Positions 24,920 through 38,318 of a stretch of DNA of 64,000 bases are shown here, in pieces. The position numbers and the translations under genes are program-made. The stretch's first letter is position 1; each line of letters opens with the position of its first letter. Origin of the DNA: Candidatus Parcubacteria bacterium (lineage in GTDB: Bacteria > Patescibacteriota > Patescibacteriia > Patescibacteriales > UBA12075); the NCBI GenBank assembly GCA_963814275.1, contig CAWFCE010000002.1, forward strand, positions 1,195,263 to 1,259,262, in the 5' to 3' direction. The notes beneath the pieces are model-generated. The model was not told where the DNA came from and did no database searches. It saw nothing but the letters and a program-made list of their open reading frames with translations.

Positions 24920-25780
24920 TTATAATAAATCCCCGATTTCGTCAAATTTATTTACTGCAACTTTAGTATAAATTTGAGTGGTTTCCAGGCGAGCATGGCC
25001 CAGCAAAGACTGAATATATCTTAAGTTTACACCATTTTCTAAGAGGTGGGTAGCAAAGCTGTGGCGCAATGAATGAGCAGAAACCCGTTTTTTGATCCCG
25101 GCCCGATTTGCGGCCTCGGTGACAATTTTCTGGATGGTCCGAACCGTCAATTTCCCGGCCGAACGGAAGCTTTCGAACAAGAATTCGGCCGGATCATAGC
25201 CGCGGATGTATTGCCCGATGTTTTCCAACACTGTCCCGGACACGATCGTCACCCGGTCCTTGTTGCCCTTGCCGGCCTGGATCCGGATTATTTTTCGGTC
25301 AAAGTCGATATCATAAACCCGCAAATTCACAAGTTCGCTCACCCGCATGCCGGTGGTATAAAGCACCTGGATGATGAGTTTATGTTTTATATTTCCTGCT
25401 ACCTCTATCATCCCAATGATTTCTTTTTTCGCCAGCACAACCGGTATCCTGGAGCCCATTTTGGGCCGCTTGATCCGGATTTCCCCGGCAAAAAAATTCC
25501 TCTTTAAAATTTGCGTGTAATAGAATTTAATGGCGTTGATCGCCAGGTTCAAGGTCGCCGGCGCCCGGCCGCTCACCAGAAGCCAATCCAGATAATCTTT
25601 TATATCCTGCGCGTTTAAATCATCGCTGAATTTGTTTGCAAATCTAAGCAATTCCTTGGTATAATAAACATAAGCCTTTACCGTTTTTTGGCTATAATTC
25701 CGTATTCTCAATTCCTGCTCCAAGTTATAAAACAAATCCCTTTTTAAAGTAGTAGAACGATTTAAATCTGATGGTAGCAT
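24920..25780 (-). CDS. tyrosine recombinase, integron-integrase-like N-terminus but Xer-sized (array 1 recombinase)
   Basis: 286 aa. SAM-like core-binding domain (IRNYSQKTVKAYVYY..., RIPVVLAKKEI); catalytic set TGMRVSE, GKGNKDR, HSLRHSFATH, LLGH, QIYTKV. It is divergent from and 78 bp away from the first GTTRRRY site. Confidence 0.85.
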   Translation of the reverse strand: MLPSDLNRSTTLKRDLFYNLEQELRIRNYSQKTVKAYVYYTKELLRFANKFSDDLNAQDIKDYLDWLLVSGRAPATLNLAINAIKFYYTQILKRNFFAGEIRIKRPKMGSRIPVVLAKKEIIGMIEVAGNIKHKLIIQVLYTTGMRVSELVNLRVYDIDFDRKIIRIQAGKGNKDRVTIVSGTVLENIGQYIRGYDPAEFLFESFRSAGKLTVRTIQKIVTEAANRAGIKKRVSAHSLRHSFATHLLENGVNLRYIQSLLGHARLETTQIYTKVAVNKFDEIGDLL

Positions 25781-25850
25781 ACCTTAATTAGCTAACATAT
25801 TTATATAATAATTTTAACTAATTTTTAACAAAAAATCAACAAGTTCAGAT

Positions 25851-25864
25851 ATAACCAGTTAGAT
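25851..25864 (+). other. attI-like site of array 1 (ATAACCAGTTAGAT)
   Basis: First GTTRRRY box (GTTAGAT, 25858-25864) after the recombinase gene. The ATAACCAGTT prefix is shared with array 2 (58890-58899). It is complementary to the R'' of cassette 1. Confidence 0.5.
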
Positions 25865-25902
25865 GAAATAATTAAATTATTTTCTGCTACGCAGAAAAAT
25901 TA

Positions 25903-27126
25903 TTGGGGCAAATTTATTTTTTTTATGAATATGAAGAAAAAATTCAAAAACCAACTCCTGAAAACAATCAAGAGTCACAAGCTGATATTTTACCTGAAAC
26001 ATACACCAAAGCCCGCACTCAAGAGATTAATCAGCAAATTAATTCATATCAGGGACCAAAAAACTCTGTAGATTTGGTATCCAAAACCAAAGAGATACAA
26101 GAAAACTACAAGCAATACATGGAAGAATCAGATGCTGAAGGAAGCCAAGAAACATTACAGCTTTTTCAAAAAAAAATGCAGGCAGAGATTGATTTCTATA
26201 AAAAAGAGTTTGATAAATTTAATGATCTGCAAAGGCTAGAAACCGTCTCTAATATATTAAAACCAGAAGATTTTCAGCTCTATGAAAAAATTCTAGGCAA
26301 CAAGGAAGGAAACACAGATGATTTATTTGATTCCCGCGGTAAAGTAATTCACGCCACAAATTCAACTGCACTAGATATAATATCTGATGTTAATACAATT
26401 TCTGGAGGAACAAGGCAGCTTGGACCTTCTTTCTCTGACGGAGATCACGACATCGCAATCACTTTTAATCTTGTGTGGGAAAAATTAAAAACGCCAGGAG
26501 GCATAGATAAAACCCACAAAAAAATTGACCTTGATGAATATCCACAATTCCCCAGTAAATATAATGAATTTGTTGATTGGGCAGTGCAAAGATTAAAAAA
26601 TGAATATGGCGAGGGAGAAAAGTTTGAAATGGAAAAAAACAAACTTCTTGCAAAAGCTGAAAAACATAACGAAGATAAATCAGTCCTCCACGATACTGAA
26701 GAACAGTACACTCAAGAATTAAAAGATATGGCATATGGCACGCTTAAACCGAAGTGGATAAAAGACGGGCTTAGCGAAGAAGAAGCTGAAAATAAAGTAA
26801 AAGAATATATTGAAAATCAAAACCATTTTAAAAACAGGCTAAAAAACCGACCTCAAAATGAAGTAGCCTTCCCTGTTACACTTGCATTTATTAAAAATGA
26901 GCTACCTGAACTTGTGCCTGAAGGTGGTGAAAGAGAATTTGAACTAAGAACAGAAGAAGAAATTAAGCTTGATAATGCCTCTACCATATTTGTTCCTGAA
27001 AAATATCTAAATAGCAGACTTGTTAGAAAAATAAATCAGGTTTATCCTAATATAGACATAAGAACAGAGGAGGAGTTGGAATTTGTAAGAATGAATAAAT
27101 TATTAAATAAAATAAATTTGCCCTAA
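25903..27126 (+). CDS. hypothetical Lys/Glu-rich protein (cassette 1)
   Basis: 407-aa ORF. Start uncertain: the TTG at 25903 lies inside the cassette inverted repeat and the first in-frame ATG is at 26119. Confidence 0.5.
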   Translation: MGQIYFFYEYEEKIQKPTPENNQESQADILPETYTKARTQEINQQINSYQGPKNSVDLVSKTKEIQENYKQYMEESDAEGSQETLQLFQKKMQAEIDFYKKEFDKFNDLQRLETVSNILKPEDFQLYEKILGNKEGNTDDLFDSRGKVIHATNSTALDIISDVNTISGGTRQLGPSFSDGDHDIAITFNLVWEKLKTPGGIDKTHKKIDLDEYPQFPSKYNEFVDWAVQRLKNEYGEGEKFEMEKNKLLAKAEKHNEDKSVLHDTEEQYTQELKDMAYGTLKPKWIKDGLSEEEAENKVKEYIENQNHFKNRLKNRPQNEVAFPVTLAFIKNELPELVPEGGEREFELRTEEEIKLDNASTIFVPEKYLNSRLVRKINQVYPNIDIRTEEELEFVRMNKLLNKINLP

Positions 27127-27162
27127 TAATAACTCGCTTCGCTCGTTGAATTTAATTACATC

Positions 27163-27254
27163 ATCTAACAGCGTGTATACGGTTCGCGCTTGGCTATCGC
27201 CAAATGCTCACCCAAATTTGCTTCGCAAACTTCGTATACACACGAACGTTAGGC
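27163..27254 (+). repeat. attC-like site 1
   Basis: R'' ATCTAAC (27163-69) is the reverse complement of the upstream GTTAGAT. It is followed by stem GTGTATACG / CGTATACAC, GGTTCG, hairpin H1 TTGGC-TATC-GCCAA, CACCCAAATT, hairpin TTTGC-TTCG-CAAA and ACTTCG. R' is GTTAGGC (27248-54). Confidence 0.75.
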
Positions 27255-27318
27255 GCAACAATAAAAAGCCTCTTTAATTAATTTAATAATTTTGGCAATT
27301 TATTTGCCCAATAAAACT

Positions 27319-27702
27319 ATGATAAAACCAGACCAAAATTTAGGAAAATTTTTTTCCAAAGAAGACCAATCCATTGAAAAGGAAACTGATTTAAAACAAC
27401 TTCAAGATTTCGCCGTATTATACCATGAAAAAAACATGCCTGAAGATCAGGAGAAAAAATTTATTTCATTGGCGCAAAAATACATAGACGAGAATCATGA
27501 TGGAACATACTATAATGAAGGCAATACAGATTATATTTATGTGCAACTTCCAAACGGACTATACTTAGAAGCTGATGCACATCTCAGAAGTAACACCTTT
27601 TATTTTTCCGGAGTACTATCAAAAGAAGATGCAGAAAAAAGAATAGACATGTTAGCAAAACAACGGGAAGAAGATATAAAAGCAGCTTTAGATAAAGAAT
27701 AA
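27319..27702 (+). CDS. hypothetical protein (cassette 2)
   Basis: ATG at 27319. The track start at 27292 reads through the cassette inverted repeat. 127 aa. Confidence 0.5.
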   Translation: MIKPDQNLGKFFSKEDQSIEKETDLKQLQDFAVLYHEKNMPEDQEKKFISLAQKYIDENHDGTYYNEGNTDYIYVQLPNGLYLEADAHLRSNTFYFSGVLSKEDAEKRIDMLAKQREEDIKAALDKE

Positions 27703-27842
27703 ACAAATTGCCAAAATTAATTTAAATAGCGGAGGAGGCTTTTTATTACTCGCTCCACTCCGTTCCGCGCCGCGCTGCGCTCTCACCCTCAAATTTTATG
27801 ATTATTAACTTTAATAAGGTATAAAATTTGAGTCTTCGGGGC

Positions 27843-27941
27843 GTATAACAACGCGATATACGGTTCGGCCCTCGGCCCGGGCCTCACCCAAATTGCAATC
27901 CCCTTCGGGTCTTGCAACTTCGTATATCGGTGATGTTGTGT
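27843..27941 (+). repeat. attC-like site 2
   Basis: Degenerate R'' GTATAAC; CGATATACGG / CGTATATCGG stems; GGTTCG; H1 GGCCC-TCG-GCCCGGGCC; CACCCAAATT; H2 GCAATCCCC-TTCG-GGTCTTGC; ACTTCG. R' is GTTGTGT (27935-41). Near-identical to site 14 except for H2. Preceded by an extra hairpin module at 27749-27842. Confidence 0.7.
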
Positions 27942-28006
27942 GAAATAATTAAATTATTTTTGCTCCGCAAAAATTGTTAGGGCAAATTTATTTAATCTTT
28001 AATCTT

Positions 28007-28456
28007 ATGAAACTCTATCATGGTTCACCAAATAGTTTTGATACAATTCGTAAAAGTCAGGCGCAAGCAGGTGATGATATTAAAGTGCCAGATGATGAAT
28101 TATTAAACGCGATTTATTTAACCCCAAATTATGAATTTGCTTTGGCCATCGCTTCGATGCCGGAAGGTGCTGCCAACATCGACAATGAAACCAAAACAAT
28201 CAAGTTTGAAAATCCTGAAGCATTCGACCCAGAAAAAGAAGTTTATATTTATGAAGTTGATAGTGAATTAATCCCGAAAGAAAATTTAAAAGAAGTTGAC
28301 GAGCTTCAAATTGCGATTTTAAACACCGATGAAATAAAGCCAACAATAAAACATGTTTGCAAAGCTGGTGATGTTGAGAAATATTATGAAATAAAAAAAG
28401 AAATTTTAGAGGCTAAAAACGAAACTAAAATATCACCTGAGTTCAAGATTAAATAA
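28007..28456 (+). CDS. hypothetical protein (cassette 3)
   Basis: ATG at 28007 (MKLYHGSPNSF). The track start at 27974 lies in the inverted repeat GGGCAAATTTATTT. Confidence 0.5.
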   Translation: MKLYHGSPNSFDTIRKSQAQAGDDIKVPDDELLNAIYLTPNYEFALAIASMPEGAANIDNETKTIKFENPEAFDPEKEVYIYEVDSELIPKENLKEVDELQIAILNTDEIKPTIKHVCKAGDVEKYYEIKKEILEAKNETKISPEFKIK

Positions 28457-28500
28457 ATTTGCCCTAACAACTCGCTATCGCTCGTTAATTTAATTACATC

Positions 28501-28627
28501 ACACAACACCGCGATAAACGGCTCGGTCTTTATTCAAAGACCTCGCGCAAATTTCTGTTTTCTCTTTTGTGATTAATTTAATAATGTAGAGAAGACAGAA
28601 ACTTCGCTTCATCGGGAAACATTATGT
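28501..28627 (+). repeat. attC-like site 3
   Basis: R'' ACACAAC is the reverse complement of the upstream GTTGTGT. CCGCGATAAACGG / CGCTTCATCGGG stems with conserved bulges; GCGCAAATT; long H2 with an ATTAATTTAATAAT loop; ACTTCG. R' is ATTATGT. Confidence 0.72.
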
Positions 28628-28686
28628 GAAATATGTTTTTACTCTTGGGCTAACGCCCCAACTTTTATATAATAAATTTAATTTTT

Positions 28687-29136
28687 ATGAATAACCTAAA
28701 ATATACGAAACCACTAAACATTTTTTTGCTTTTAGTAGCTATTGTCTTATTAGCTGGTTGCTCAAATAAATATTTTGAAAAAAATTTGGAGTGCGAGAAA
28801 CAAAAAGACATGCTTCAATACAACAGCGATAATTACAGCAAGGATACCAACACAATTATCAGTAAAATTCAAAAAGTATTTTACAGTCCAAAAGCAAAAA
28901 AATGTTTGTATGTTAGTGTCTCTGCAATCGATTTTAATTCGCCTAATAATATGACTGCTCTAACACAGAAAGACTATTCAGACGGAGCAAGATGGAAGCT
29001 CCGGACAATTTCAGGCGAATTAGTTGAAGATTTGCTAATTAACACTGAAGATGAAAAAATGGCTGTTTTTGGAGCAGAGCCACAACATACAGATTCATAT
29101 GAAGAATTTGAAAACCTTGTTAAAAAATGGGAATAA
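28687..29136 (+). CDS. putative lipoprotein (cassette 4)
   Basis: 149 aa. Signal peptide with lipobox LLAGC. Confidence 0.55.
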   Translation: MNNLKYTKPLNIFLLLVAIVLLAGCSNKYFEKNLECEKQKDMLQYNSDNYSKDTNTIISKIQKVFYSPKAKKCLYVSVSAIDFNSPNNMTALTQKDYSDGARWKLRTISGELVEDLLINTEDEKMAVFGAEPQHTDSYEEFENLVKKWE

Positions 29137-29200
29137 AAAATTAAATTTATTATATAAAAGCAATTCCGCATAAGCGGAATTAAGAGCAAAAACATACATC

Positions 29201-29657
29201 ACATAACAATGAATATGCGGTTCACAAATTAAAAATTATTCCTTATAATTATCAAAATATATGAAAAAAATATTAGTATTCGCGGTCGTTGTCTTGTTAA
29301 TAATTTTAGTGTTTAGCTGGTGGAATAAATCCCCAGAAGCTACATGGCAGGGTTCCTATTACAAACACGGACAACAAGAAAACGAAGTGTATGGACCAAT
29401 TTTTACTAATTTTGATGGCTGTAAAGCGTGGGCATTAGGAAAAATAGTTTATAACGACGACACAGCTAACTGTAGTAAAAATTGTCATGACGCTTTGGGA
29501 GACGGCACCCCTGTGTGTGAGGAAGTTGTTAGAAATTGGGCACCGCTTCCGGGCAGTTACACTTTTGATAATTATAAGGAATAATTTTTAATTTGTTCAC
29601 CCAAATTTTTGTTCCGCTTCGCTACACAAAAACTTCGCATATTCATAAACGTTAGGC
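29201..29657 (+). repeat. attC-like site 4, split by a nested cassette (29225-29595)
   Basis: R'' ACATAAC matches the upstream TTATGT. L'' AATGAATATGCG (29208-19) pairs with L' CGCATATTCAT (29636-46). The insert is flanked by GTTCAC (29220-25 and 29595-600) and sits immediately 5' of CCAAATT. R' is GTTAGGC (29651-57). Confidence 0.72.
29261..29584 (+). CDS. small secreted/TM-anchored Cys-containing protein (nested cassette)
   Basis: 107 aa with an N-terminal hydrophobic helix. The ORF is bracketed by a perfect 32-bp inverted repeat (29225-29256 / 29564-29595), whose right arm encodes the last 6 codons plus the stop. Confidence 0.55.
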   Translation: MKKILVFAVVVLLIILVFSWWNKSPEATWQGSYYKHGQQENEVYGPIFTNFDGCKAWALGKIVYNDDTANCSKNCHDALGDGTPVCEEVVRNWAPLPGSYTFDNYKE

Positions 29658-29689
29658 GAAATAAATTTTTCGCTACTAATTTTAAACAT

Positions 29690-30283
29690 ATGAAAAAATT
29701 CTTTTTGGGCTTCGCAAGCTCGTTATTAATCACAATTCCCCTGATCGCTTTTTCTGCTGATTCACTGTCTACAAAACTAAAAGGAAAAATTTTGTTAGCA
29801 GTAGAAGATAAGGGTAAAACTTATTATGTCAATGAAGATGGAAACAGATACAGAATTACTGTTTCTACTGCACAAAAAATATTTGAAAAACTTGCATTGG
29901 GCATTACAAATGAAAATTTAAGTCAAATTCCAGAAAGTAACGTAGGTATCGACCCAGAAGAAAACAGCACCCAGGAAAATTGTGCTGCGCAAGAATCAGA
30001 ATTAAATGATTGGAAGAATTTGAATACAAAAAATGAAAATACCCTCAGTTCTTGCCTTAACACCCTCACTAGCTTGAAGGATTCTTATGCAGACCTAATT
30101 AACAAATACGAAGATTGCATAGGTGAGTGCAATTATGGCCCTACAGTTGATGCACTCATCGCCCAAAATAACGAGCTTGCTAAACAAAATGATGAACTTT
30201 TAGCTATATCTATTTACTGGGAAAATAGTGCTAACACATGGAAGGCTTACGCATATGGTTGCACTGGCTATACTAGTCAATAA
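29690..30283 (+). CDS. secreted protein with KGKILLxVExxGxxYYV motif (cassette 6)
   Basis: ATG at 29690 (MKKFFLGFASSLLITIPLIAFS signal peptide). The track start at 29609 reads through attC-like site 4. Confidence 0.55.
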   Translation: MKKFFLGFASSLLITIPLIAFSADSLSTKLKGKILLAVEDKGKTYYVNEDGNRYRITVSTAQKIFEKLALGITNENLSQIPESNVGIDPEENSTQENCAAQESELNDWKNLNTKNENTLSSCLNTLTSLKDSYADLINKYEDCIGECNYGPTVDALIAQNNELAKQNDELLAISIYWENSANTWKAYAYGCTGYTSQ

Positions 30284-30336
30284 AATTAGTAGCGAAAAAT
30301 TTACTCAAGGGTTCGCTCCTTGAATCCGCTCACCTC

Positions 30337-31028
30337 GCCTAACGCGGCGTATCTGGCTCCGCTGGCCGTAAAATAATTAATTTTTTTATGACGATATTAA
30401 AGCCCAGAAATAAACCTGGCTCAAATAGTTTGCAAAACAGATTAGGTGGAGCAGTTTATAATTTTCTGGACAAAGCAAAAAATAATGATAAATTTTTGTT
30501 AGACTACGAAAGGATTAAAGGTAAATGTACCTCTGGCAATTGGCAAATTAATGATTATTCTCCAATACTTTTGCCATTGGTTAAATACTATGAAAATAGC
30601 TTGTGGTTTATTTGTGATAAATTAGGCATATTTAACCAGATTAATGACGGCAAAAAACCCCATAGCTTAAGGGCATTTTTCGACACAAAAGAAACAGAAA
30701 TAAATATTTGGCTTTCTTCAAAAATTAATGATAATCTTAAATATAAAAAATTGTCCAGAAAATTATTTTCAACAATCGACGATTATGTTCAGAGAAATGA
30801 AGTTGTTCATTGCAACGAAATCATATCCTTTCCCGATTTGAGCAATTACGATAGTTTGCTTACTAAATTAAAAGAATTAGTTGAACTTTTATTTAATCAC
30901 AATTTATTACAAAAAAATTAATTATTTTACTAGCTCCGCCCAAATTTCGTTTCCGCTTTTTGTTGGCGCATCCGCGCAATTATAACAAAAAGCTACAACG
31001 AAACTTCAGATACGCCGAAATGTTATCG
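30337..31028 (+). repeat. attC-like site 6, split by a nested cassette (30363-30932)
   Basis: R'' GCCTAAC is the reverse complement of the upstream GTTAGGC. L'' GGCGTATCTG (30346-55) pairs with L' CAGATACGCC (31007-16). The direct repeat GCTCCGC occurs at 30356-62 and 30933-39, the latter abutting CCAAATTT. R' is GTTATCG (31022-28). Confidence 0.72.
30388..30921 (+). CDS. hypothetical protein (nested cassette)
   Basis: 177-aa ORF flanked by the 20-bp inverted repeat GTAAAATAATTAATTTTTTT (30368-87 / 30911-30). Confidence 0.5.
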   Translation: MTILKPRNKPGSNSLQNRLGGAVYNFLDKAKNNDKFLLDYERIKGKCTSGNWQINDYSPILLPLVKYYENSLWFICDKLGIFNQINDGKKPHSLRAFFDTKETEINIWLSSKINDNLKYKKLSRKLFSTIDDYVQRNEVVHCNEIISFPDLSNYDSLLTKLKELVELLFNHNLLQKN

Positions 31029-31120
31029 GAAATAAATTTTTTATCTTGGTGGTAATTTCAAGGTTTGCGCGTTTTGCCAAGACGAAAATTTGATTTTTTA
31101 TTTTTTAAAGAGGGGTAATT

Positions 31121-31609
31121 ATGAAATTAACCAAAGAAACTACCTCGGAAAAACTTCTTGATTTTGGCAAACAGATTTTCGAGATTTTACAAAGACTAGA
31201 TACCTCACCAATCGTTTACGGTAGTTTGGCATATTTTTATCATACGAAAGATACTAGTTTCCCGATTAGAGACATTGATTTGCTTTTGCCAGAATCAAAT
31301 TTTTCAAAAATATCTGAAATGCTCGACAAAGAAAAAAATGTCACATACAATGTGATGCCATATCATAGTATAGAGGTATTCAGAGACGGTCTCGAAATCG
31401 ACATCGATTCTATCGAACATTTTTTAGATCCGAGATCTAGAGAATTTCATAAATCAACGATAAACGACCTCGATTTGAATATTTTAAATAAAGAGTCCTT
31501 GGCAAGCATTTACAAAGAAGCCTTGGATAACATGCCGCAAGAGAAAAAACTCGATGAAAAAAGAAATAAGTATCAAAAGAAGTTAGACAATCTCCAAAAA
31601 TTACTTTAA
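31121..31609 (+). CDS. hypothetical protein, possible minimal nucleotidyltransferase fold (cassette 8)
   Basis: 162 aa with SD AAGAGGGG. YGSLAYFYH...IRDIDLLLPE resembles the GS...DxD motif of Pol-beta-type nucleotidyltransferases; this is a weak call. Confidence 0.4.
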   Translation: MKLTKETTSEKLLDFGKQIFEILQRLDTSPIVYGSLAYFYHTKDTSFPIRDIDLLLPESNFSKISEMLDKEKNVTYNVMPYHSIEVFRDGLEIDIDSIEHFLDPRSREFHKSTINDLDLNILNKESLASIYKEALDNMPQEKKLDEKRNKYQKKLDNLQKLL

Positions 31610-31734
31610 TAAGGAGTTTTTATTTTTGGCCATTCACCCCTACCCCTCTGGCCAAAAATAAAAACAAAAAATCAAATTTTCTTTTAACGTAGAAAAGCTA
31701 TCGGCCAGTAGCATGGAGATAAAAAATTTACATC

Positions 31735-31921
31735 CGATAACACGGCACATGCGGTTCAGAAATTTCTCGTTTTTTAGACTTTTCAATTAAGGTATGAGAA
31801 ATTTCCTCTCCCAAATTGCGCTGACTATATGGAAAGTTTAGTGGTATAATCAAGTTAAGCGATAATCAATAATTTTATCAATAAATAACGGCGCAACTTC
31901 GCATGTGCCGATACGTTAAAT
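31735..31921 (+). repeat. attC-like site 8
   Basis: R'' CGATAAC is the reverse complement of the upstream GTTATCG. GGCACATGCGG / CGCATGTGCC stems; GGTTCA; H1 GAAATTTCTC...GAGAAATTTC; CTCTCCCAAATT; long H2; AACTTCG. R' is GTTAAAT (31915-21). Confidence 0.72.
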
Positions 31922-32016
31922 GAAATTGGCTAATTGTTTAGTGTACACCATAGATGACACTATAGTGTACACTAATGTGGTAAATCAAAGTTAATCGCGA
32001 GCCAACTTCACTTAAC
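31916..32016 (+). other. conserved ORF-less cassette, copy 1 of 3
   Basis: GAAATTGGCT...TTAATCGCGAGCCAACTTC-ACTTAAC with internal palindrome TAGTGTACAC-N16-GTGTACACTA. Homologous copies are at 59441-59542 and 61297-61396. Confidence 0.6.
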
Positions 32017-32534
32017 AGGTGATATGCGGTTACAATTAAGGAAATATAGAATATAATTTTTACTAAAAAAATCCCCACGAACTGAATCGCAGGGACACGT
32101 TGGTTTTAGTCCATCTTTGGAAATTACACAATAAGGATTTTTGCTCTGCCTTCGACATTGTGAAAACCGATAAACACAGTATTGCGTCCGGTTTCCTTTA
32201 AACGTTTCAATGCTAACACGGCAGCTTCGGTACCAACGGTTTTTTCAAAATCTGATATGAGCTTTATGGCATCATCAATCGGATAATCATCAACTTCCAC
32301 TCCAACCATTGGTCCGTGCTTTTCTGGGTCATATTCTGATATCGGCGCTGTCTTTAATTCCATATTCCCTCCTTTTTATGAATTGTTGCTAGAAACTTAG
32401 CACGTGAATGCCAAAAACGCAAGTAAAAATTATTTTCTATATTTCTTTAATCTCCACCCAAATTCCTGCCCCTCTTTTTAGGATAAATTAATAATGAGTC
32501 GGGGCAGAAACTTCGCATATCAAAAATGTTAGGC
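32010..32534 (+). repeat. attC-like site 9, split by a nested reverse-oriented cassette (32034-32451)
   Basis: R'' ACTTAAC. L'' GGTGATATGCG (32018-28) pairs with L' CGCATATCA (32513-21). ACCCAAATT and the H2 stem CCTGCCCC...GGGGCAG follow. R' is GTTAGGC (32528-34). This is a paralog of the array 2 site at 59536-60215. Confidence 0.7.
32124..32363 (-). CDS. hypothetical 79-aa protein (reverse-oriented nested cassette)
   Basis: Strong SD (AGGAGGG) 7 nt upstream of the ATG on the minus strand. The cassette is bounded by a roughly 29-bp inverted repeat (32034-63 / 32423-51). Confidence 0.55.
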   Translation of the reverse strand: MELKTAPISEYDPEKHGPMVGVEVDDYPIDDAIKLISDFEKTVGTEAAVLALKRLKETGRNTVFIGFHNVEGRAKILIV

Positions 32535-32559
32535 GAAATTTATTTTCAATTTAAAATTT

Positions 32560-33396
32560 ATGAGTTCGGATACTATAACCAATTACTACGATTACACCCT
32601 GCCATTTTATAGATTTTTTTATCACGGCAAGAGCAATGCCGTTCATTATGGCTTTTGGAACAATGGAGTTAAAAATCACCAGGAAGCTTTATTGAACGTA
32701 AATAAATTTTTGGCTGACACGGTTAAGATAAAATCAGATGATAGTGTTTTAGACGCGGGTTGCGGAATTGGAGGTAGCGCGATTTGGCTGGCACAGAATT
32801 ACAATGTTCGAGTTGATGGCATAACCATAAGTGAAAAACAGTTAGAGGAAGCCAAAAATTTATCTACCAAATATAATGTTGACCATATCGTAAATTTTTA
32901 TCAAAGAAATTTTTTAAATACCAAATTTAACGATAGTTCCTATAACATAGTTTTGGCGATTGAAAGCGTGTGCCATGCCGAGAACAAAAAGGACTTTATC
33001 AAAGAAGCGTACCGGGTACTTAAAAACGGCGGACGATTGATTGTTGATGATGGATTTCTTTTGCGAAGTCCGAAAAATAAACACGAGCAAAAAGATTTAA
33101 ATGCATTTTTAGAGGGCATGGCACTCTCCAATCTTGCTTTTGAAACAGACTTTAAAAAATCTCTTGAAGATGTTGGATTTAAAAATATAAAAATTTACGA
33201 CAAGGTCAACGAAACGATTCCTTCTTCAAAAAAAATCTATAAAATGTCAATTTTTAGTTATCCTTTATCTATAATTCTCGAAAAACTAAAACTTACACCA
33301 CCATTATTAACCAAAAATAATTTAGCGGGAATAACACAATACAGGATAATTAAAAATGGGATAATGGGACACCGAGTATTTTACGCTGAAAAATAA
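32560..33396 (+). CDS. class I SAM-dependent methyltransferase (cassette 11)
   Basis: 278 aa. Motif I VLDAGCGIGGSAIWLA; post-I and motif II/III spacing (LKNGGRLIVDD). Confidence 0.8.
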   Translation: MSSDTITNYYDYTLPFYRFFYHGKSNAVHYGFWNNGVKNHQEALLNVNKFLADTVKIKSDDSVLDAGCGIGGSAIWLAQNYNVRVDGITISEKQLEEAKNLSTKYNVDHIVNFYQRNFLNTKFNDSSYNIVLAIESVCHAENKKDFIKEAYRVLKNGGRLIVDDGFLLRSPKNKHEQKDLNAFLEGMALSNLAFETDFKKSLEDVGFKNIKIYDKVNETIPSSKKIYKMSIFSYPLSIILEKLKLTPPLLTKNNLAGITQYRIIKNGIMGHRVFYAEK

Positions 33397-33419
33397 ATTT
33401 TAAATTGAAAATAAACATC

Positions 33420-33573
33420 GCCTAACACCGCGATAAGCGGCTCCAGAAAAGTTCCTTAATTAAATATAATAATGAGTAAACTTTTCTTCCGACCCAAATT
33501 TCTATTTTTCTTTTCTTATTAATTTTAATATTGAAAAAAAATAGAAACTTCGCTTCATCGGGAAACGTTGTGT
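33420..33573 (+). repeat. attC-like site 11
   Basis: R'' GCCTAAC is the reverse complement of the upstream GTTAGGC. CCGCGATAAGCGG / CGCTTCATCGGG stems; GGCTCC; H1 33445-87; CCCAAATT 33493-500; H2 33501-45; AACTTCG 33546-52. R' is GTTGTGT (33567-73). Confidence 0.75.
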
Positions 33574-33639
33574 GAAATAATGTCCTTAAACAAAATATTT
33601 TAGGTGGTGCTAATTCAAAAGAAAAAGGAGGGAGGTATT

Positions 33640-33852
33640 ATGGTAATCATCAATAAACTTGGCAGATTATTAAAAGACCATTCAGAAACTTTTATTCTTT
33701 TTTTAGCGGGTATAATATTAACCCTATACGGGATTTTGAAAGCATTGCCTTTTATTGATTGGGCGCAGAAAGGTCAATTTTCGAGTGAGTTTACTATTTT
33801 ACTTGGAATACTTCTGCTATTCTTTGGACTTCGTTCATTATTAAACAAATAA
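33640..33852 (+). CDS. small two-TM membrane protein (cassette 12)
   Basis: ATG at 33640 preceded by AAGGAGGGAGG. 70 aa. Confidence 0.55.
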   Translation: MVIINKLGRLLKDHSETFILFLAGIILTLYGILKALPFIDWAQKGQFSSEFTILLGILLLFFGLRSLLNK

Positions 33853-33955
33853 ATTGATTATTCTCGCGGGGAACACTTTCCCCGCACCACCTAAAATATT
33901 TTGTTAGCTTCTATTCAGAAGCTGTTTGCTCAATCGCAAACAAGGACATTACATC

Positions 33956-34073
33956 ACACAACAACGCGACAAGCGATTCGGTCTTTATTCAAAGACCTCA
34001 CTCAAATTTTTGAAATGATTATTAACTTTAATAATGAATTTCAAAAACTTCGCTTCGTCGGTATACGTTATAT
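33956..34073 (+). repeat. attC-like site 12
   Basis: R'' ACACAAC is the reverse complement of the upstream GTTGTGT. H1 GGTCTTTATTCAAAGACC; CACTCAAATT; H2 TTTGAAATG...ATTTCAAA; ACTTCG. R' is GTTATAT (34067-73). Confidence 0.72.
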
Positions 34074-34090
34074 GAAATTAAAAATTCCCT

Positions 34091-34603
34091 ATGAGCATTA
34101 AACAAGATTGGAAAAGTCCCAAAGTTGATATAAAAGATAGTCCGATTGGAGGAAAAGGCATTTTTGCTAATTCCAATATTAAACGAGGTGAAAAAATCAT
34201 CGTCTGGGGAGGAAATTATACTGATGCTGTTGGTGCGCAAAAAGCAAAAGAAAAAGGTATGCTAGTATTTCAATGGGACGATGACCTTTATAGCTACGAA
34301 GATAGAGGGAAAGACGATGGGTACTACATAAACCATTCCTGTAACCCTAATCTATGGATGACAGATGCATACACTTTAACAGCTATGAGAGATATTAATG
34401 CTGGTGAAGAAATTACAATAGATTATGCGTTGTTCGAGGAAGATGATTATATTTCAAAATGGAAATGCAACTGCGGTTCATCGTTATGCCGCGGCCGGGT
34501 TACAGGAGAGGATTGGAAAAGCATAGTGCTACAAAAACGCTATAAAGGACATTTTTCACCTCTCTTAAATAAACGGATCCAGAAATTACAAGATAATAAA
34601 TAA
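34091..34603 (+). CDS. SET domain protein (cassette 13)
   Basis: 170 aa. YINHSCNPN and EEITIDY SET motifs plus the post-SET CNCGSSLCRG. Confidence 0.8.
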   Translation: MSIKQDWKSPKVDIKDSPIGGKGIFANSNIKRGEKIIVWGGNYTDAVGAQKAKEKGMLVFQWDDDLYSYEDRGKDDGYYINHSCNPNLWMTDAYTLTAMRDINAGEEITIDYALFEEDDYISKWKCNCGSSLCRGRVTGEDWKSIVLQKRYKGHFSPLLNKRIQKLQDNK

Positions 34604-34627
34604 TTCACGGCGGGAATTTTTAACATC

Positions 34628-34772
34628 ATATAACACCGCGATAAGCGGTTCCAGAAAATTTCCTTTATTAATGATAATAATGAATAAAATTTTCTTCCAC
34701 CCAAATTTTGCAAATGAATATTAATTTTAATAAGGTATTTGCAAAACTTCGCTTCATCGGGAAACGTTAGGC
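34628..34772 (+). repeat. attC-like site 13
   Basis: R'' ATATAAC is the reverse complement of the upstream GTTATAT. Same family as sites 3, 11 and 17. R' is GTTAGGC (34766-72). Confidence 0.75.
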
Positions 34773-34800
34773 GAAATAATTTATCAATAATTAAATTTCT

Positions 34801-35150
34801 ATGGGAATAGACAACAAGCCTTTTACGGCAGAGCAACTCCAGGAACAGATTAATTTTTTTGGAATTGATTGCACTGTAAAAAAACACCTGGAGAAAAATA
34901 TATATTTTTTAGTTGTGACTCTATGGAAGACGCGGAATCAATAGTAGTAAGTTTTTGGGGAAAAAGAGATCAATCAGTTGTTGACGGCCTTAACCGAGGC
35001 ATGCTAAAACCTAGTCATGAAATTACTACAGGTGCCAGAACGGAAATCACTGAAATCGGAGGCAAAGCAACATTAATTATTAGTGAAAACGGTGCTCCAC
35101 TTTCGGAAAAAACAATTTCAGCATTAGAAGATGGAGGATTTACAATTTAA
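34801..35150 (+). pseudogene. hypothetical cassette gene with a frame break at an A7 run (cassette 14)
   Basis: The ATG at 34801 opens MGIDNKPFTAEQLQEQINFFGIDCTVKK. After the A7 run (about 34877-34883) the reading continues in another frame as TPGEKYIFFSCDSMEDAES... to 35150; one extra A would fuse the two frames. Alternatively an intact ORF could start at ATG 34923. Confidence 0.4.
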
Positions 35151-35232
35151 TTATTGATAAATTACTCAAGGGGGCGCTGCGCTTCAGGTCTGCCTTTTAC
35201 AATTAATAATATTGAGAGCAGACCTGACCCTC

Positions 35233-35331
35233 GCCTAACAACGCGATATGCGGTTCGGCCCTCGGCTCGGGCCTCACCCAAATTTTCTTTCACTTCGTTC
35301 AAGAAAACTTCGTATATCGGTGATGTTGTAC
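35233..35331 (+). repeat. attC-like site 14
   Basis: R'' GCCTAAC is the reverse complement of the upstream GTTAGGC. Near-identical to site 2 apart from H2. R' is GTTGTAC (35325-31). Preceded by a hairpin module at 35165-35232. Confidence 0.75.
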
Positions 35332-35359
35332 GAAATAAAAATTTAATTATTTTGCTACC

Positions 35360-36079
35360 ATGAAATTCAAGGAAGCATACAAACACATAAACCCCACCGA
35401 ATACATAAATATTTTTTCCAACCCTCAATGGTATTTGGAAATACAAGCTGAACTAAAGGATTTTTTTTATGATTATGACGGCAATAAGGATAACAAATCG
35501 CAAGAATGGCTTGAAAAAAGGAAAGAATTTGTAAAAATGGTTTGTGAACTTTTAGAAGCTGGCAAAGTTGCTCTTGGCGACTCTGGTATAAACTGGGATA
35601 AAGACCGTTTACCCATAGATACAATTGTTATACATCATACGAGCACGCCATCAGACACCCCCGTTATAGCCATTGATGCACTGGGATTGATTCGTTTGTA
35701 TGCACCGAATTACAGCAAAAAAAATGAGGAGCAATTTGGCCAGCCAATATGGTCAAACCATTTTTGCAAAAATCAACAAACATTCGTTGCTTATCATTAC
35801 ATAATCAGACAGGATGGTTCTTTTGAACACATATTACAAGATGACCAAATAGGTTGGCATTGTGGCAATTGGGATTATAACTGCAGAAGTATTGCGATTT
35901 GTTTTCTTGGTGATTTAAAAGAAAAAAAACCGACTGAAAAAGCACTTCAAACGGCGAATGAAATCATAAAAAAATATCCAAATTGTAATATATTCGGTCA
36001 TAGAGAAATTAAACCCACAACAACTTGCCCAGGTAATCTGTTTCTAGGGAAAGAGGGTTGGAAAACGACATATTTCTAA
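35360..36079 (+). CDS. N-acetylmuramoyl-L-alanine amidase (amidase_2/PGRP fold) (cassette 15)
   Basis: 239 aa. IVIHHTSTP...AYHYIIRQDG...GWHCGNWDYNCRSIAICFLG...GHREI...TCPG. Confidence 0.75.
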   Translation: MKFKEAYKHINPTEYINIFSNPQWYLEIQAELKDFFYDYDGNKDNKSQEWLEKRKEFVKMVCELLEAGKVALGDSGINWDKDRLPIDTIVIHHTSTPSDTPVIAIDALGLIRLYAPNYSKKNEEQFGQPIWSNHFCKNQQTFVAYHYIIRQDGSFEHILQDDQIGWHCGNWDYNCRSIAICFLGDLKEKKPTEKALQTANEIIKKYPNCNIFGHREIKPTTTCPGNLFLGKEGWKTTYF

Positions 36080-36107
36080 GAACGCAAAATAATTAAATTT
36101 TTACATC

Positions 36108-36186
36108 GTACAACACTGAATATCTGGTTCCGTTATCGCTCCACCCAAATTGCTGACGCAACTTCAGATATTCAGAAACGTTATCG
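36108..36186 (+). repeat. attC-like site 15 (shortest, 79 bp)
   Basis: R'' GTACAAC is the reverse complement of the upstream GTTGTAC. CTGAATATCTGG / CAGATATTCAG stems; GGTTCC; CCACCCAAATT; hairpin GCTGACGCAA; CTTCAG. R' is GTTATCG (36180-86). Confidence 0.75.
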
Positions 36187-36253
36187 GAAATATTGCTCAT
36201 TAAAATATTTTTTTGTAAGAGGGCTTGAAATTAACTATCAAAGGAGGATTGTA

Positions 36254-36544
36254 ATGAAGAAAAAATCTTTACACAACGTTGGAGATTTGGTCGTATTTAA
36301 TGAAACCAAAGAATTTGGGAACAAAAATGACCGTATATTTCACATCCACGCCATTCGATATGGCAAATGCACTGGAATTCCTAAAAAACAATATTGGTTC
36401 GCTGGTTTCCTGCTGGAAATTGGAAAACACGAGAGTGAGGGTTTACCTCAAATTCCAGTTTTTGCAACAACCTTAACCAACGCTTCCGAAAATCAATTGA
36501 GTTCATTAGAGCATCTACAATGCCGTTTCAACCCATGGAAATAA
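36254..36544 (+). CDS. hypothetical protein (cassette 16)
   Basis: 96 aa. SD AAAGGAGGA upstream of the ATG. Confidence 0.5.
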   Translation: MKKKSLHNVGDLVVFNETKEFGNKNDRIFHIHAIRYGKCTGIPKKQYWFAGFLLEIGKHESEGLPQIPVFATTLTNASENQLSSLEHLQCRFNPWK

Positions 36545-36651
36545 TCTACGCCCTTTGTCTTCGCGGGAATAAACAATATTCCCGCCCTCTTTTCAAAAAA
36601 ATATTTTTGCTGGCTTATCAGCCAACGGCTATCACTAATGAGCAATATATC

Positions 36652-36759
36652 CGATAACAGCACGCTATCCGGTTCGCGCTTGCCCTGTCGGGCAAATGCT
36701 CACCCAAATCCCGACTCCGATTCACTACATCGGGACTTCGGATATCGGCATATGTTATG
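36652..36759 (+). repeat. attC-like site 16
   Basis: R'' CGATAAC is the reverse complement of the upstream GTTATCG. Family shared with sites 18, 23 and 24 (GCACG.TATCCGG ... CCGATATC). H1 stem TTGCCC/GGGCAA. R' is GTTATGT (36753-59). Confidence 0.75.
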
Positions 36760-36815
36760 TGAAATTTAAGTTGTGGCCTTAATTAAATTTAATATATTCA
36801 ATAACTTCTCTCTTA

Positions 36816-37208
36816 ATGATAAAACAAGTTTCATTGTTAATATTATTTGATAAAGATAAGCGCATTTTATTGCAACATCGTTCCGAAGATCAAGAAGGAT
36901 TACCTGGCTATTGGGCTTTTTTTGGTGGTCATATTGAAAACGGCGAAACACCAGAGCAGGCATTACTGAGAGAGTCTGAGGAGGAATTAGAGTATATGCC
37001 GGAAAACCCCCGCCTAGTTATGACTCAGGATTTTATGCACGACAATATACGACATAGAAAATACGTTTATTTAGAGGAATATAATAACAGCAAACTTGTT
37101 CAACACGAGGGTCAAGCTATGGGATGGTACCATTTAGGCGAAATACAAAAATTAAAAATGGTAGACCACGACCGAGAAGTTATTGATTATATTAAAAACA
37201 AATATTGA
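36816..37208 (+). CDS. NUDIX hydrolase (cassette 17; duplicated at 60271-60663)
   Basis: 130 aa. Nudix box [23 protein letters not shown]. Protein sequence identical to the array 2 copy. Confidence 0.85.
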
Positions 37209-37227
37209 GTGCCACAACTTAAACATC

Positions 37228-37433
37228 ACATAACACCGCGATAAGCGGCTCCAGAAAATTTTCTTTATTAATATTAAACAGGAATAAAATTTTCTACCGG
37301 CCCAAATTTCATTTCAGTTTTCTGATGAACGTTCAATAAACGTTCATCGCTCCACGATTGTCTGATATTGATAATAATCGATTCTAAAACGGAAAACTGA
37401 AGTGAAACTTCGCTTCATCGGGAAATGTTAAAT
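37228..37433 (+). repeat. attC-like site 17 (206 bp)
   Basis: R'' ACATAAC is the reverse complement of the upstream GTTATGT. Long branched H2. R' is GTTAAAT (37427-33). Duplicated with the NUDIX cassette in array 2. Confidence 0.72.
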
Positions 37434-37497
37434 GAAATATCTAAAACAAATTCCCTATCGGGAATTTTATCTGCAAGTTTATAATTAATTTTCTTAT

Positions 37498-38160
37498 ATG
37501 AAAAACAAATTTTTTTTACTATTAATCTTAGTCATTATCTTAGCTGGGTGCAATAAACAAAACACAAGTATTAATTTAACCCCAGATAATCAAACTAAAA
37601 ATATTTCAAACTCAACAAACGATACTAATACATCAATACAGGAAAACGTAGAAGCAAAAAACAATATTCCCGAAGAAAAACCAACAGAAATTAAGCAAGA
37701 AGACGATATAAAAATACAAAATATTAATAATAAAAAAAGTTATCAAAATTTAACAACTGGGTTTAGCTTAGAATTTCCAGAGGCATTAATATTCAGGAAT
37801 AACGCTTTTTACACCGAGGTAAACTGGGACGGTATTGTAAATAAAAAAACTGACCATATGTACGTTCCTGAATTTACTGTCCGTTTTGCATCTGATGTGT
37901 CATTAGATGAATTTATTTATAATTCGATTAACCCAAATTATAAAAATCATTTTAATTCAAACAAAAACAAAATCAAAGAACAAAAAACAATAGGAAATAA
38001 TAAATTCTTTATGATAAACAGTAAAAATTTTGATAGCAATGGTTGTAGTTACTATATAGAAAATAATAAAAATATAATGAGATTAAGTACCGCATATAAC
38101 TGCGGTGAAAACGAATTAATAGAAAACGTTTTGATATCTATTAAAACAACAGAAAATTAA
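37498..38160 (+). CDS. putative lipoprotein (cassette 18)
   Basis: 220 aa. Signal peptide with lipobox ILAGC; Asn/Lys-rich. Confidence 0.55.
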   Translation: MKNKFFLLLILVIILAGCNKQNTSINLTPDNQTKNISNSTNDTNTSIQENVEAKNNIPEEKPTEIKQEDDIKIQNINNKKSYQNLTTGFSLEFPEALIFRNNAFYTEVNWDGIVNKKTDHMYVPEFTVRFASDVSLDEFIYNSINPNYKNHFNSNKNKIKEQKTIGNNKFFMINSKNFDSNGCSYYIENNKNIMRLSTAYNCGENELIENVLISIKTTEN

Positions 38161-38212
38161 TTATAAACTTGCAGATTATTTTTGCTATCGCAAAAATGGT
38201 TTTAGATACAGC

Positions 38213-38318
38213 ACATAACAGCACGATATCCGGTTCGCGCTTTCCTTCGGAAAATGCTCACGCAAATCCCGACTCCGTTTCACTGCGTCGGGACTTCGGA
38301 TATCGGCATACGTTAGGC
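38213..38318 (+). repeat. attC-like site 18
   Basis: R'' ACATAAC has 2 mismatches to the upstream GTTAAAT. Paralog of site 16 with a compensatory H1 stem TTTCC/GGAAA. R' is GTTAGGC (38312-18). Confidence 0.68.

Follow-up and report, generated by a model that had tools for sequence, protein, structure and literature searches.

Analysis of a 64-kb window (the whole stretch of DNA under study, from a genome of 1.27 Mb) suggests that a Patescibacteria genome likely carries two sedentary chromosomal integron-type platforms, in which Int1 and Int2, members of an IntI-related lineage without the I2 (additional) domain, are the cognate cassette recombinases (Table 1). The integron layout, an integrase gene beside an attI site and an array of cassettes bounded by attC sites, was found here and in 22 other loci. 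We read these elements as a putative I2-less integron lineage of CPR bacteria using Xer/dif-like recognition, and cassette capture via folded DNA hairpins appears to be possible without the additional domain.

Table 1. Recombinase genes, attI sites and attC sites of the two units.
Feature	Coordinates	Strand	Description
Int1	24920..25780	-	286-aa tyrosine recombinase, IntI-leaning N-terminal domain, without I2/additional domain
Conserved box	25812..25829	+	TTTTAACTAATTTTTAAC; between int1 and attI1, common to Int1-clade loci; possibly accessory binding or promoter
attI1 core	25842..25869	+	dif-like 11-6-11: AGTTCAGATAT-AACCAG-TTAGATGAAAT; junction G25858|T25859
Array 1	25859..42970	+	co-oriented ORFs, low GC (~33%), at least 22 attC
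attC 1	27163..27254	+	R'' ATCTAAC complementary to attI1 R' GTTAGAT
attC 2	27843..27941	+	
attC 3	28501..28627	+	R' = ATTATGT
attC 4	29201..29657	+	hairpin loop holds ORF 29261-29584
attC 5	30337..31028	+	loop holds ORF 30388-30921
attC 6	31735..31921	+	
attC 7	32010..32534	+	ORF-sized insert within loop
attC 8	33420..33573	+	
attC 9	33956..34073	+	
attC 10	34628..34772	+	
attC 11	35233..35331	+	
attC 12	36108..36186	+	shortest (79 nt), reference fold
attC 13	36652..36760	+	
attC 14	37228..37433	+	of NUDIX cassette duplicated in array 2
attC 15	38213..38318	+	
attC 16	38713..38811	+	
attC 17	39590..39726	+	
attC 18	39757..40325	+	loop holds NUDIX ORF 39809-40234
attC 19	40992..41095	+	
attC 20	41610..41697	+	
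attC 21	41967..42047	+	right half only (L'-R' GTTCAGC), no R'' found
attC 22	42088..42970	+	degenerate, terminal; R'' GCTGAAC to R' GTTCAGA around reverse ORF 42272-42754
Int2	57970..58782	-	270-aa recombinase paralogous to Int1, without I2 domain
attI2 core	58881..58908	+	TTTCGCATAAT-AACCAG-TTGTACGAAAT; junction G58897|T58898
Array 2	58898..64000	+	at least 6 attC, last detected R' 62349-62355; may extend beyond window end
attC 2-1	59348..59446	+	R'' GTACAAC complementary to attI2 R' GTTGTAC
attC 2-2	59536..60215	+	loop holds NUDIX ORF 59588-60121
attC 2-3	60683..60888	+	of duplicated NUDIX cassette
attC 2-4	61146..61302	+	
attC 2-5	61390..61775	+	small ORF within loop
attC 2-6	62244..62355	+	

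Both recombinase genes, including the second, have the positions and strand given for them in the initial annotation, and all motifs quoted there were found in their products. Int2 is 40% identical to Int1. HMM searches matched both proteins to PF00589 (E-values of 1e-42 for Int1 and 5e-40 for Int2) and to PF13495, and the catalytic R-K-H-R-H-Y set of the tyrosine recombinase fold is complete in both, as had been proposed, and occupies invariant alignment columns (R146, K174, H236, R239, H262 and Y271 in Int1 numbering, the last being the tyrosine of QIYTKV). The IntI-like character ascribed to the N-terminal core-binding domain was borne out as well: SAM_4 (PF13495) gave 61.6 bits for Int1 and 47.9 bits for Int2, with lower SAM_1 scores of 28.5 and 29.7 bits, respectively. 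Reference IntIs score 97-104 on SAM_4, and XerC/D are of the SAM_1 type. A C-terminal KSPLD tail is common to IntIs and many CPR family members.

Both proteins missed the cut-offs of TIGR02249 (265; 208.8 bits for Int1 and 197.5 bits for Int2) and NF011946 (435; 142 and 119), on which the IntI1 control scored 508.6 and 799.5. Their best curated HMM match was the XerA model NF040815 (cut-off 220 bits), with Int1 above the cut-off at 249.2 and Int2 below it at 202.8. NCBI names this model 'tyrosine recombinase/integron integrase'; array-associated and array-less relatives score alike on it, and the NCBIfam models did not separate these two groups of family members. The best structural matches, 5hxy and 4a8e, are XerA.

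Several comparisons confirmed that Int1 and Int2 are without the IntI-specific I2 segment. Counted on alignment columns, from the catalytic K to the H of HxxR, the interval is 61 aa in Int1 and 60 aa in Int2, compared to 102 in IntI1, 103 in VchIntIA, 62-64 in XerA, 64 in XerC and 68 in XerD, and it is 55-61 aa in 85/85 sampled relatives (87 family members with Int1 and Int2). Measured between the R of KDR and the H of HSLRH, the interval is 59 aa in Int1 and 58 aa in Int2, exactly as reported at the outset, and the total lengths of 286 and 270 aa agree as well. When Int1 was compared with VchIntIA (2a3v) by phmmer, the match was split in two, with 31 aa of Int1 opposite 73 aa of IntIA, and in tblastn against IntI1, 256 aa of Int1 span 297 aa. 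In a MAFFT alignment, two blocks (columns 219-250 and 261-270) with about 42 residues in all are filled only in the IntIs; Int1 and Int2 are without them, as are four homologues, XerA, XerC and XerD. An AlphaFold model (pLDDT 80.6) has just two helices from the beta-hairpin to the HxxR helix and no extra helix. The interval, the MAFFT alignment, the split 2a3v match and the AlphaFold model agree with the absence first read from the sequence, and no insertion in divergent form, which would have spoken against it, was found in the alignment, the intervals or the model.

In the attI sites, the left arm (A/GTTCnnATAT) and the right arm (TTnnnnGAAAT) are 11 bp each and flank a 6-bp centre (AACnnG); E. 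coli dif has the same base at 8/11 left-arm positions and at six of the seven fixed right-arm positions. Conservation of attI over 11 loci ends exactly at G|TT, and the L'-R' half of attC resembles attI base for base. In both units the integrase gene is divergent from the adjoining attI and array.

In a scan of the window, matches to a regular expression for the R''-L'' module were confined to the arrays, and all sites lay on the forward strand. With R'' positions taken from curated coordinates, R'' was complementary to the R' that starts its own cassette at 92/104 positions, compared to 42/104 for the downstream R', and none of 20,000 permutations reached 92. These data establish as real the array and the canonical R boxes described in the initial annotation. 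The window gave no match to Rfam at gathering thresholds and none in a tRNA scan. A NUDIX cassette is duplicated between the arrays (36754-37427 and 60209-60882), and both of its boundaries fall at GTT; likewise, in two strains with an identical integrase (loci L009 and L010), divergence begins immediately beyond the GTT in the first attC. These boundaries show that the predicted crossover point lies at G|TT of the R' box, each cassette carrying its own TTRRRY.

The attC sites form conserved hairpins. Across 74 sites, 93% of cells were paired, compared to 28-38% when slid, and 81 double-sided changes were counted; L'' and L' covary, and the cassette-specific variable bases of R'' follow the variable R' bases of their own cassette. 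The bottom strand folds more stably in 64 of the 74 sites (p=1e-11), and G-T pairs give a strand-asymmetric folding advantage. Stems are kept even where an ORF occupies the loop. The motifs ACATC, GGTT, CCCAAAT, AACTTC and GAAAT are conserved, far more than is seen in classical attCs. Excess nucleotides lie on the '-side (R'/L') in every one of the 74 sites, as bulges of 3 nt and 2 nt at conserved positions (the 2-nt bulge in 73/74), and the ''-side is continuous; the classical dfrA5 and orf attCs, folded likewise, have ''-side bulges. The hairpin and the bottom-strand bias of classical attCs are thus present, but their extrahelical bases on the L'' side and their unpaired central spacer are not. 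Since classical ''-side extrahelical bases contact I2, their lack here fits a different mode of site recognition, as had been proposed from the missing protein segment, and so do the bulges on the opposite side. A top-strand model, with cleavage at R'', was also considered, as the CPR top strand has bulges in its 3' half, like the classical bottom strand. It was rejected because attI-left joins TTnnnnGAAAT plus ORF directly and cassette duplicates break at R'.

Pairing of gene and array recurs in other genomes. A genome-contig search with a single protein gave three close loci, two of which end at the contig edge beside the gene. The pairing was found in 6/6 close loci, where every attC match lies upstream of the gene and on the other strand, and it recurs in a further 16 loci that are more distant. 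Gene, attI and array adjoin in one relative orientation across 2/2 units and the 22 loci, except for two inverted cases, and Int1 orthologues hold a conserved syntenic position. In a neighbour-joining tree with six reference sequences, the Int1 and Int2 core clades had bootstraps of 96 and 85; all core-clade members whose upstream DNA is long enough carry an array, and the loci without one are placed in other clades. In the same tree, the CPR family and IntI split together from XerA/C/D with a bootstrap of 98; the deep branches are poorly supported, CPR monophyly receiving 31. Placement among housekeeping XerC/XerD, with no array association elsewhere, had been named as the outcome that would undo the initial annotation; instead, relatives in other genomes adjoin arrays of the same kind, and the trait maps to the two well-supported clades. 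Among distant relatives with 1 kb or more of upstream DNA, 29 gave no array with the first covariance model, and its iteration added no array-bearing loci. As a single attC type served to train the model, some of these 29 may be false negatives; they may be real Xer proteins or bearers of another attC type.

In the mechanism that we propose, cassettes would be promoterless, each with an attC at its end, and attI would act double-stranded. In the hairpin formed by the attC bottom strand, a dif-like duplex would be restored by an R stem of about 11 bp, counting the conserved GAAAT/ACATC extension, together with an L stem of 11-12 bp and the conserved AACTTC/GGTT in addition. Bound to it mainly through Xer-like sequence and arm recognition, the recombinase would cleave the bottom strand at AA|C (top strand G|TT) and exchange one strand with attI or another attC. 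Replication would then resolve the junction, a step that also completes recombination in classical integrons and the integration of CTXphi by XerCD. The conserved '-side bulges of 3 nt and 2 nt probably replace the classical extrahelical bases in strand choice and in blocking a second exchange, with no I2 helix required. We infer catalysis by Int1 and Int2, single-strand exchange and these bulge roles, taking the evolutionary footprints in the sequence as the sign of recombination.

The best HMM match, to XerA, and the dif-like 11-6-11 attI could also mean that Int1 and/or Int2 is a housekeeping single-recombinase Xer of the XerA, XerS or XerH type, that attI is the chromosomal dif and that the cassettes are IMEX-like hitchhikers accumulating there. 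The syntenic position of Int1 orthologues speaks for this explanation, as does the arrangement of XerS systems, in which dif adjoins the recombinase gene. We nevertheless consider it unlikely, since this one genome has two paralogous units of recombinase, attI and array at a distance of 33 kb, and the array-associated clades are distinct, which leaves the array-less relatives as better housekeeping candidates. Moreover, neither attI looks like a single terminus dif: within the 64-kb window GC skew is negative on either side of both sites, so that there is no sign change and no terminus-like switch at either. Dual use of Int1 and Int2, in dimer resolution too, would not contradict integron function. 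Cassettes might instead move by double-strand Xer-type recombination between L'-R' sites, in the manner of pdif modules, with the R''/L'' repeats otherwise used, for example as terminators. The recombinases are indeed Xer-like, and the sites are more conserved than classical attCs and resemble attI in L'-R'. However, the tracking of R' by R'' within each cassette, the covariation of L'' and L', the strand-asymmetric folding from G-T pairs, the fixed bulge positions and the stems kept around loop ORFs are all features that R'-only recombination does not need, which makes this explanation quite improbable.

It is also conceivable that the arrays are CALIN-like clusters served in trans by an I2-bearing IntI encoded on a mobile element or in another part of the genome, with Int1 and Int2 as bystander Xer-type genes. 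The window covers 64 kb of the 1.27 Mb, CALINs are common in bacteria (PMC4889954), and the additional domain was reported to be necessary for IntI1 activity (Messier & Roy 2001, as cited in PMC9668308 and PMC4792948). Against this stand the adjacency of recombinase gene, conserved attI and array in both units and the 22 loci, attC sites without the ''-side extrahelical bases that I2 reads, and the insertion in 0/87 family members. In addition, a literature search, which reached only part of the subscription papers, turned up no account of integrons in Patescibacteria and none of integron integrases without I2. We regard service in trans as very unlikely.

I2 is treated as defining and indispensable for integron integrases, and integron-finding software separates IntI from Xer proteins by this domain. 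Its co-evolution with the extrahelical bases of attC is accepted as the origin of single-stranded cassette recombination (PMC4792948; PMC7790495). An apparently active I2-less platform with mirror-image attC bulges would suggest that integrons can do without the domain, and would make the CPR platform a candidate intermediate in, or alternative solution for, the transition to single-stranded cassette recombination. It would extend integrons to CPR, whose tiny, host-dependent genomes may owe gene flux to them. Surveys probably under-count integrons, with such arrays called 'CALIN' at best and their integrases 'XerC/XerD'. We propose tentatively, as somewhat short of an even chance, that the CPR elements are an integron lineage that never acquired I2 or branched before I2 arose. 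If so, attC recombination and arrays evolved first, on a Xer/dif-like chassis, and I2 with the ''-side extrahelical bases would be a later refinement in the classical lineage, answering the 'chicken-and-egg' question of Escudero et al. 2016; IntegronFinder-type definitions would then miss a whole integron class, which may be widespread in Patescibacteria. The compact, apparently more sequence-guided enzyme may also deserve attention as a tool for recombination.

Compared to classical integrons (for example those of class 1 or the Vibrio cholerae superintegron, whose integrase is VchIntIA), the units share a divergent integrase gene with adjacent attI, co-oriented cassettes of mostly unassigned function, and attC sites of the form R''(nnnnAAC)-L''...L'-R'(GTTnnnn) with crossover at G|TT, R'' complementary to the starting R' of its own cassette and a better-folding bottom strand. 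They also share a sedentary chromosomal site whose content varies by strain, and an integrase with a SAM_4-type N-terminal domain and, in many CPR members, the KSPLD tail. They differ in that the CPR integrase is without the I2 domain of about 42 aa and fails TIGR02249. In addition, the CPR attC has '-side 3-nt/2-nt bulges instead of ''-side extrahelical bases or a symmetric unpaired spacer, its R stem is extended by GAAAT/ACATC, it has several conserved internal motifs and sometimes a loop ORF, and the hosts belong to the phylum Patescibacteria. The integrons described from archaea by Ghaly et al. 2022 (PMC9668308) likewise lie beyond typical bacteria, come from MAGs and have attC-hairpin arrays, but archaeal IntIs keep the additional domain that Int1 and Int2 are without. 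Archaeal XerA/dif, XerS/difSL and XerH/difH resemble the CPR units in protein size, domain layout and 11-6-11 core and, in the case of XerS, in a gene beside its site. Here, however, the site leads into an array of cassettes with hairpin sites, there are two paralogous units in one genome and no terminus-like skew switch, and in the tree, with its limited reference set, the family sides with the IntIs rather than with XerA/C/D (bootstrap 98). The integration of CTXphi into dif1 by XerCD (an IMEX) offers a precedent for I2-independent hairpin recombination: a folded ssDNA hairpin mimicking dif recombines with a double-stranded site through an I2-less Xer-type enzyme, by one strand exchange and replication, and its stem is without bulges (PMC4792948). 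Whereas CTXphi hijacks host enzymes, the CPR units have their own dedicated recombinase, which together with the many-cassette arrays and conserved bulges appears to indicate a specialised platform.

Reading frames and motifs of both tyrosine recombinases were recovered as in the initial annotation, all quoted motifs being found in the translations. In HMM searches Int1 and Int2 matched PF00589 (E = 1e-42 and 5e-40, respectively) and both matched PF13495 (SAM_4). The same annotation suggested that they lack the IntI-specific insertion (the I2 or additional domain) between the lysine motif and HxxR, and every alignment bore this out. With phmmer, the match of Int1 to the classical integron integrase VchIntIA (2a3v) was split into two segments (20-182 of Int1 on chain 9-171, 214-274 on chain 245-305), between which 73 IntIA residues face 31 of Int1; Pyrococcus XerA (4a8e) aligned end to end. 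A tblastn comparison placed 297 residues of plasmid IntI1 opposite 256 of Int1. A MAFFT alignment that also took in IntI1, VchIntIA, E. coli XerC and XerD and a pair of XerA proteins had two blocks (columns 219-250 and 261-270; about 42 residues) filled by the two IntIs alone. Counted on the alignment, the interval from the catalytic K to the H of HxxR is 61 aa in Int1, 60 aa in Int2 and 55-61 aa in 85 relatives, compared with 62-64 aa in XerA, 64 aa in XerC, 68 aa in XerD, 102 aa in IntI1 and 103 aa in VchIntIA. In an AlphaFold2 model of Int1 (mean pLDDT 80.6), the beta-hairpin is separated from the HxxR helix by two helices only (182-195 and 213-226), and the model's top structural neighbours are XerA (5hxy) and VchIntIA (2a3v; about 30 extra alignment columns). 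A protein identical to Int1 is recorded on a 1.27 Mb contig, and the nearest Int1 relatives (57-74% identity) come from MAGs of Falkowbacteria, Parcubacteria and other Patescibacteria.

Beyond the 5' end of each recombinase gene, GC content falls from about 45-50% to about 33%, and small co-oriented ORFs alternate with structured repeats. A strict L'-R' motif of attC has 22 occurrences, all of them plus-strand and confined to 25.9-43 kb and 58.9-62.4 kb; a regular expression for the R''-L'' module had no match outside these regions. Curation gave at least 22 attC sites in array 1, beside Int1, and at least 6 in array 2, beside Int2, with the top strand ACATC - R''(nnnnAAC) - A - L'' - GG(T/C)T ... 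CCCAAAT ... AACTTC - L' - (A/G)AA(C/T) - R'(GTTnnnn) - GAAAT. Most cassette products had no Pfam match, a cargo profile typical for chromosomal integrons; the matched cargo includes several NUDIX proteins, recurrent in these arrays across genomes, and the other proteins in the table.

Coordinates of recombinase genes, cassette cargo and array elements (window positions unless a locus is named)
Feature	Position	Strand	Remark
Int1 gene	24920-25780	minus	286 aa tyrosine recombinase
Int2 gene	57970-58782	minus	270 aa tyrosine recombinase
Methyltransferase	32560-33396		array 1 cargo
SET-domain protein	34091-34603		array 1 cargo
Amidase_2	35360-36079		array 1 cargo
NUDIX hydrolase ORFs	36816-37208, 39809-40234, 59588-60121, 60271-60663		window
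NUDIX hydrolase ORFs	L007 5974-6492, L008 9467-9862, L009 4774-5187		loci of relatives
attC with in-loop ORF or insert	29201-29657, 30337-31028, 32010-32534, 39757-40325, 59536-60215, 61390-61775
Element of ~80 nt	31922-32005, 59447-59531, 61303-61385
Inner inverted repeats	25899-25930/27099-27130, 27974-28002/28442-28470, 40361-40390/40931-40960
Terminal cassette	42088-42970		array 1
Reverse-oriented ORF, 160 aa	42272-42754		in terminal cassette
PAS/HisKA histidine kinase gene	43252-45537		beyond last R' of array 1

Six attC sites hold an ORF or ORF-sized insert between L'' and L', within the hairpin, a layout of which we know no description for classical attC sites. Long extra stems flank the in-loop ORF (e.g. 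29219-29257 / 29563-29601; 39 nt, 95% complementary), and the R'-to-R'' cassette body is just 37-96 nt in four of the six. A conserved ORF-less element (TGGCTTCAC...AAGCCA), which had no Rfam match at gathering thresholds, occupies this short interval in three cassettes with an ORF in the loop. In three cassettes a second, inner inverted-repeat pair (TTAGGGCAAATTTATTT / AAATAAATTTGCCCTAA) encloses the ORF, possibly as a nested site or in regulation; in the first two cassettes, at about 25.88 kb and 27.96 kb, a small hairpin of the TTTTTGC-TCC-GCAAAAA type precedes it. Array 1 ends in a degenerate cassette (R'' GCTGAAC, weak L''/L' pairing), and a mini-cassette of this kind (TTCAGCAAAATCG...TTGCTGAAC) stands at the start of L001, a relative's locus.

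Upstream of Int1-clade genes, eleven loci share TTTTAACTAATTTTTAA...CAACAAGTTC-nn-ATATAAC-TTG. This attI conservation ends exactly at G|TT, followed by a locus-specific TTnnnn and then GAAAT. The core is an 11-6-11 site (e.g. AGTTCGCATAT-AACTTG-TTAGCTGAAAT) with the cassette junction at the border of centre and right arm, and it resembles E. coli dif, GGTGCGCATAA-TGTATA-TTATGTTAAAT, a sequence found in 5,424 of 5,426 E. coli genomes, about once per genome. Int2-clade attI sites have the related form ATAA(T/A)AAC(G/C)AG|TTnnnnGAAAT. The L'-R' half of attC matches attI base for base except for about three additional nucleotides.

Integron crossover occurs at G|TT, every cassette having its own TTRRRY; thus, R'' is expected to complement the R' that opens its own cassette and not the following one. 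Scored at 26 sites, the four variable bases of R'' were complementary to the opening R' in 92 of 104 cases and to the downstream R' in 42 of 104; permuted partners gave 49.5 +/- 4.9 matches (maximum 70 in 20,000 trials). The attI R' box is likewise complemented by the first cassette of its array (ATCTAAC/GTTAGAT in array 1, GTACAAC/GTTGTAC in array 2). One NUDIX cassette is present in both arrays at about 98% identity (36754-37427 and 60209-60882), the identity running from GTTATGT to the next GTT between unrelated flanks. The arrays are served by different recombinases, 40% identical to each other, and the shared cassette implies exchange or duplication between the platforms. Furthermore, metagenomic loci L009 and L010, which have an identical recombinase, the same downstream genes and the first 485 nt of the array (the first cassette) in common, split directly after ...GGGAAACGTT, the GTT of the first attC, indicating that array content varies between strains. 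All four results agree with that expectation for integron-type cassettes and are natural footprints of recombination at G|TT.

A covariance model trained on 17 window attC sites gave hits in all six loci of close homologues for which sequence upstream of the recombinase gene was available (L003, L006-L010); the hits were confined to that side and to the opposite strand. Two distant Acidobacteria loci had none. On their other side, Int1 orthologues share synteny (glycosyltransferases, NTP-transferase, MurA-type EPSP synthase, CtpB, L9, CTP synthase), which marks the element as chromosomal and sedentary. Of 80 metagenomic loci (38-59% identity), 16 had upstream arrays, no array was seen in 29 whose upstream DNA reached 1 kb or more, and two had downstream, co-oriented attC arrays (L018 2121-6600, L030 1592-1686), recalling the 'inverted integrase' integrons of Spirochaetes. 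Two genome assemblies end about 130-220 nt from the recombinase start, inside the first cassette (L001 1-218, L002 1-131), which suggests that MAG assemblies break up at the repeated attC sites, so that surveys miss such arrays.

That Int1 and Int2 are housekeeping Xer enzymes with hitchhiking elements beside them is a less likely explanation. NCBIfam scores of all family members rank XerA above the integron model and the latter above XerC/D, and none reaches the integron-model cut-off. In a neighbour-joining tree, the loci with arrays fall into one clade around Int1 (bootstrap 96) and another around Int2 (bootstrap 85). All members of the two with enough upstream DNA possess an array, and array-less loci are placed elsewhere; the association with such arrays in other genomes, whose lack the initial annotation had counted towards a refutation, was found. 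With this method and a small reference set (IntI1, VchIntIA, XerA/C/D), IntI1 and VchIntIA join the whole Patescibacteria (CPR) family against XerA/C/D at bootstrap 98, their place inside or sister to it having a bootstrap of just 31. The N-terminal domain scores higher with SAM_4 than with SAM_1, and an IKSPLD-type C-terminal tail is present in many members (L016, L018, L023, L027, L039, L043, L045, L052) and degenerate in Int2 (IKSPY, residues 263-270); IntI1 and VchIntIA end likewise (GVRSPLD, GVLSPLS), whereas XerC/D have no such tail. Proteins of the Int1 clade have EIGDLL in its place and, near the N-terminus, a conserved RDP motif (D15, P16). Both the SAM_4-type domain and the tail lean towards IntI. 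We also regard a canonical IntI serving the arrays in trans as less probable.

Purely double-strand recombination is, similarly, the less likely mode for these sites. When attC was reconstructed as in the circular cassette and folded with DNA parameters, the bottom strand gave the more stable fold of the two in 64 of 74 sites (Wilcoxon p = 1e-11). From the outside inward, the shared bottom-strand fold starts with a cassette-specific stem (8-9 bp), followed by a mismatch within conserved ATTTC/GATGT and an R stem of about 10 bp. A 3-nt bulge then leads to the L stem (11-12 bp) and a 2-nt bulge to a GTT/AAC stem of 3 bp, beyond which the terminal structure is variable. L'' and L' covary, with 93% of cells pairing versus 28-38% with the partner slid, and 81 double-sided changes. 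The two bulges are on the 5' (R'/L') half, and on the 3' (''-side) half no base is left unpaired; the '-side excess is 1-4 nt in 74/74 sites and the 2-nt bulge is present in 73/74 (22 sources). In contrast, the same folding of two classical attC sites from a class 1 integron (dfrA5, an orf cassette) gave the expected single-base ''-side bulges and a symmetric central spacer. [quoted passage not shown] 2016, PMC4792948). In the CPR platforms the I2 domain and the ''-side extrahelical bases are absent together.

On the simplest reading of these data, Int1 and Int2 would be the cognate recombinases of two platforms of integron type that work without I2. As in Xer/dif, sequence and arm geometry would count for more in site recognition, through an 11-bp R arm including GAAAT and an L arm with the conserved motif AACTTC, and the '-side bulges would supply the asymmetry that extrahelical bases give classical attC. 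Patescibacteria are absent from the IntegronFinder 2.0 paper, and a full-text literature search found, as far as we could see, no description of CPR integrons or I2-less integron integrases. The integrases of archaeal integrons keep the additional domain (Ghaly et al. 2022, PMC9668308). With CTXphi and XerCD, an I2-less Xer enzyme recombines a folded hairpin with a double-stranded site by one strand exchange (PMC4792948).
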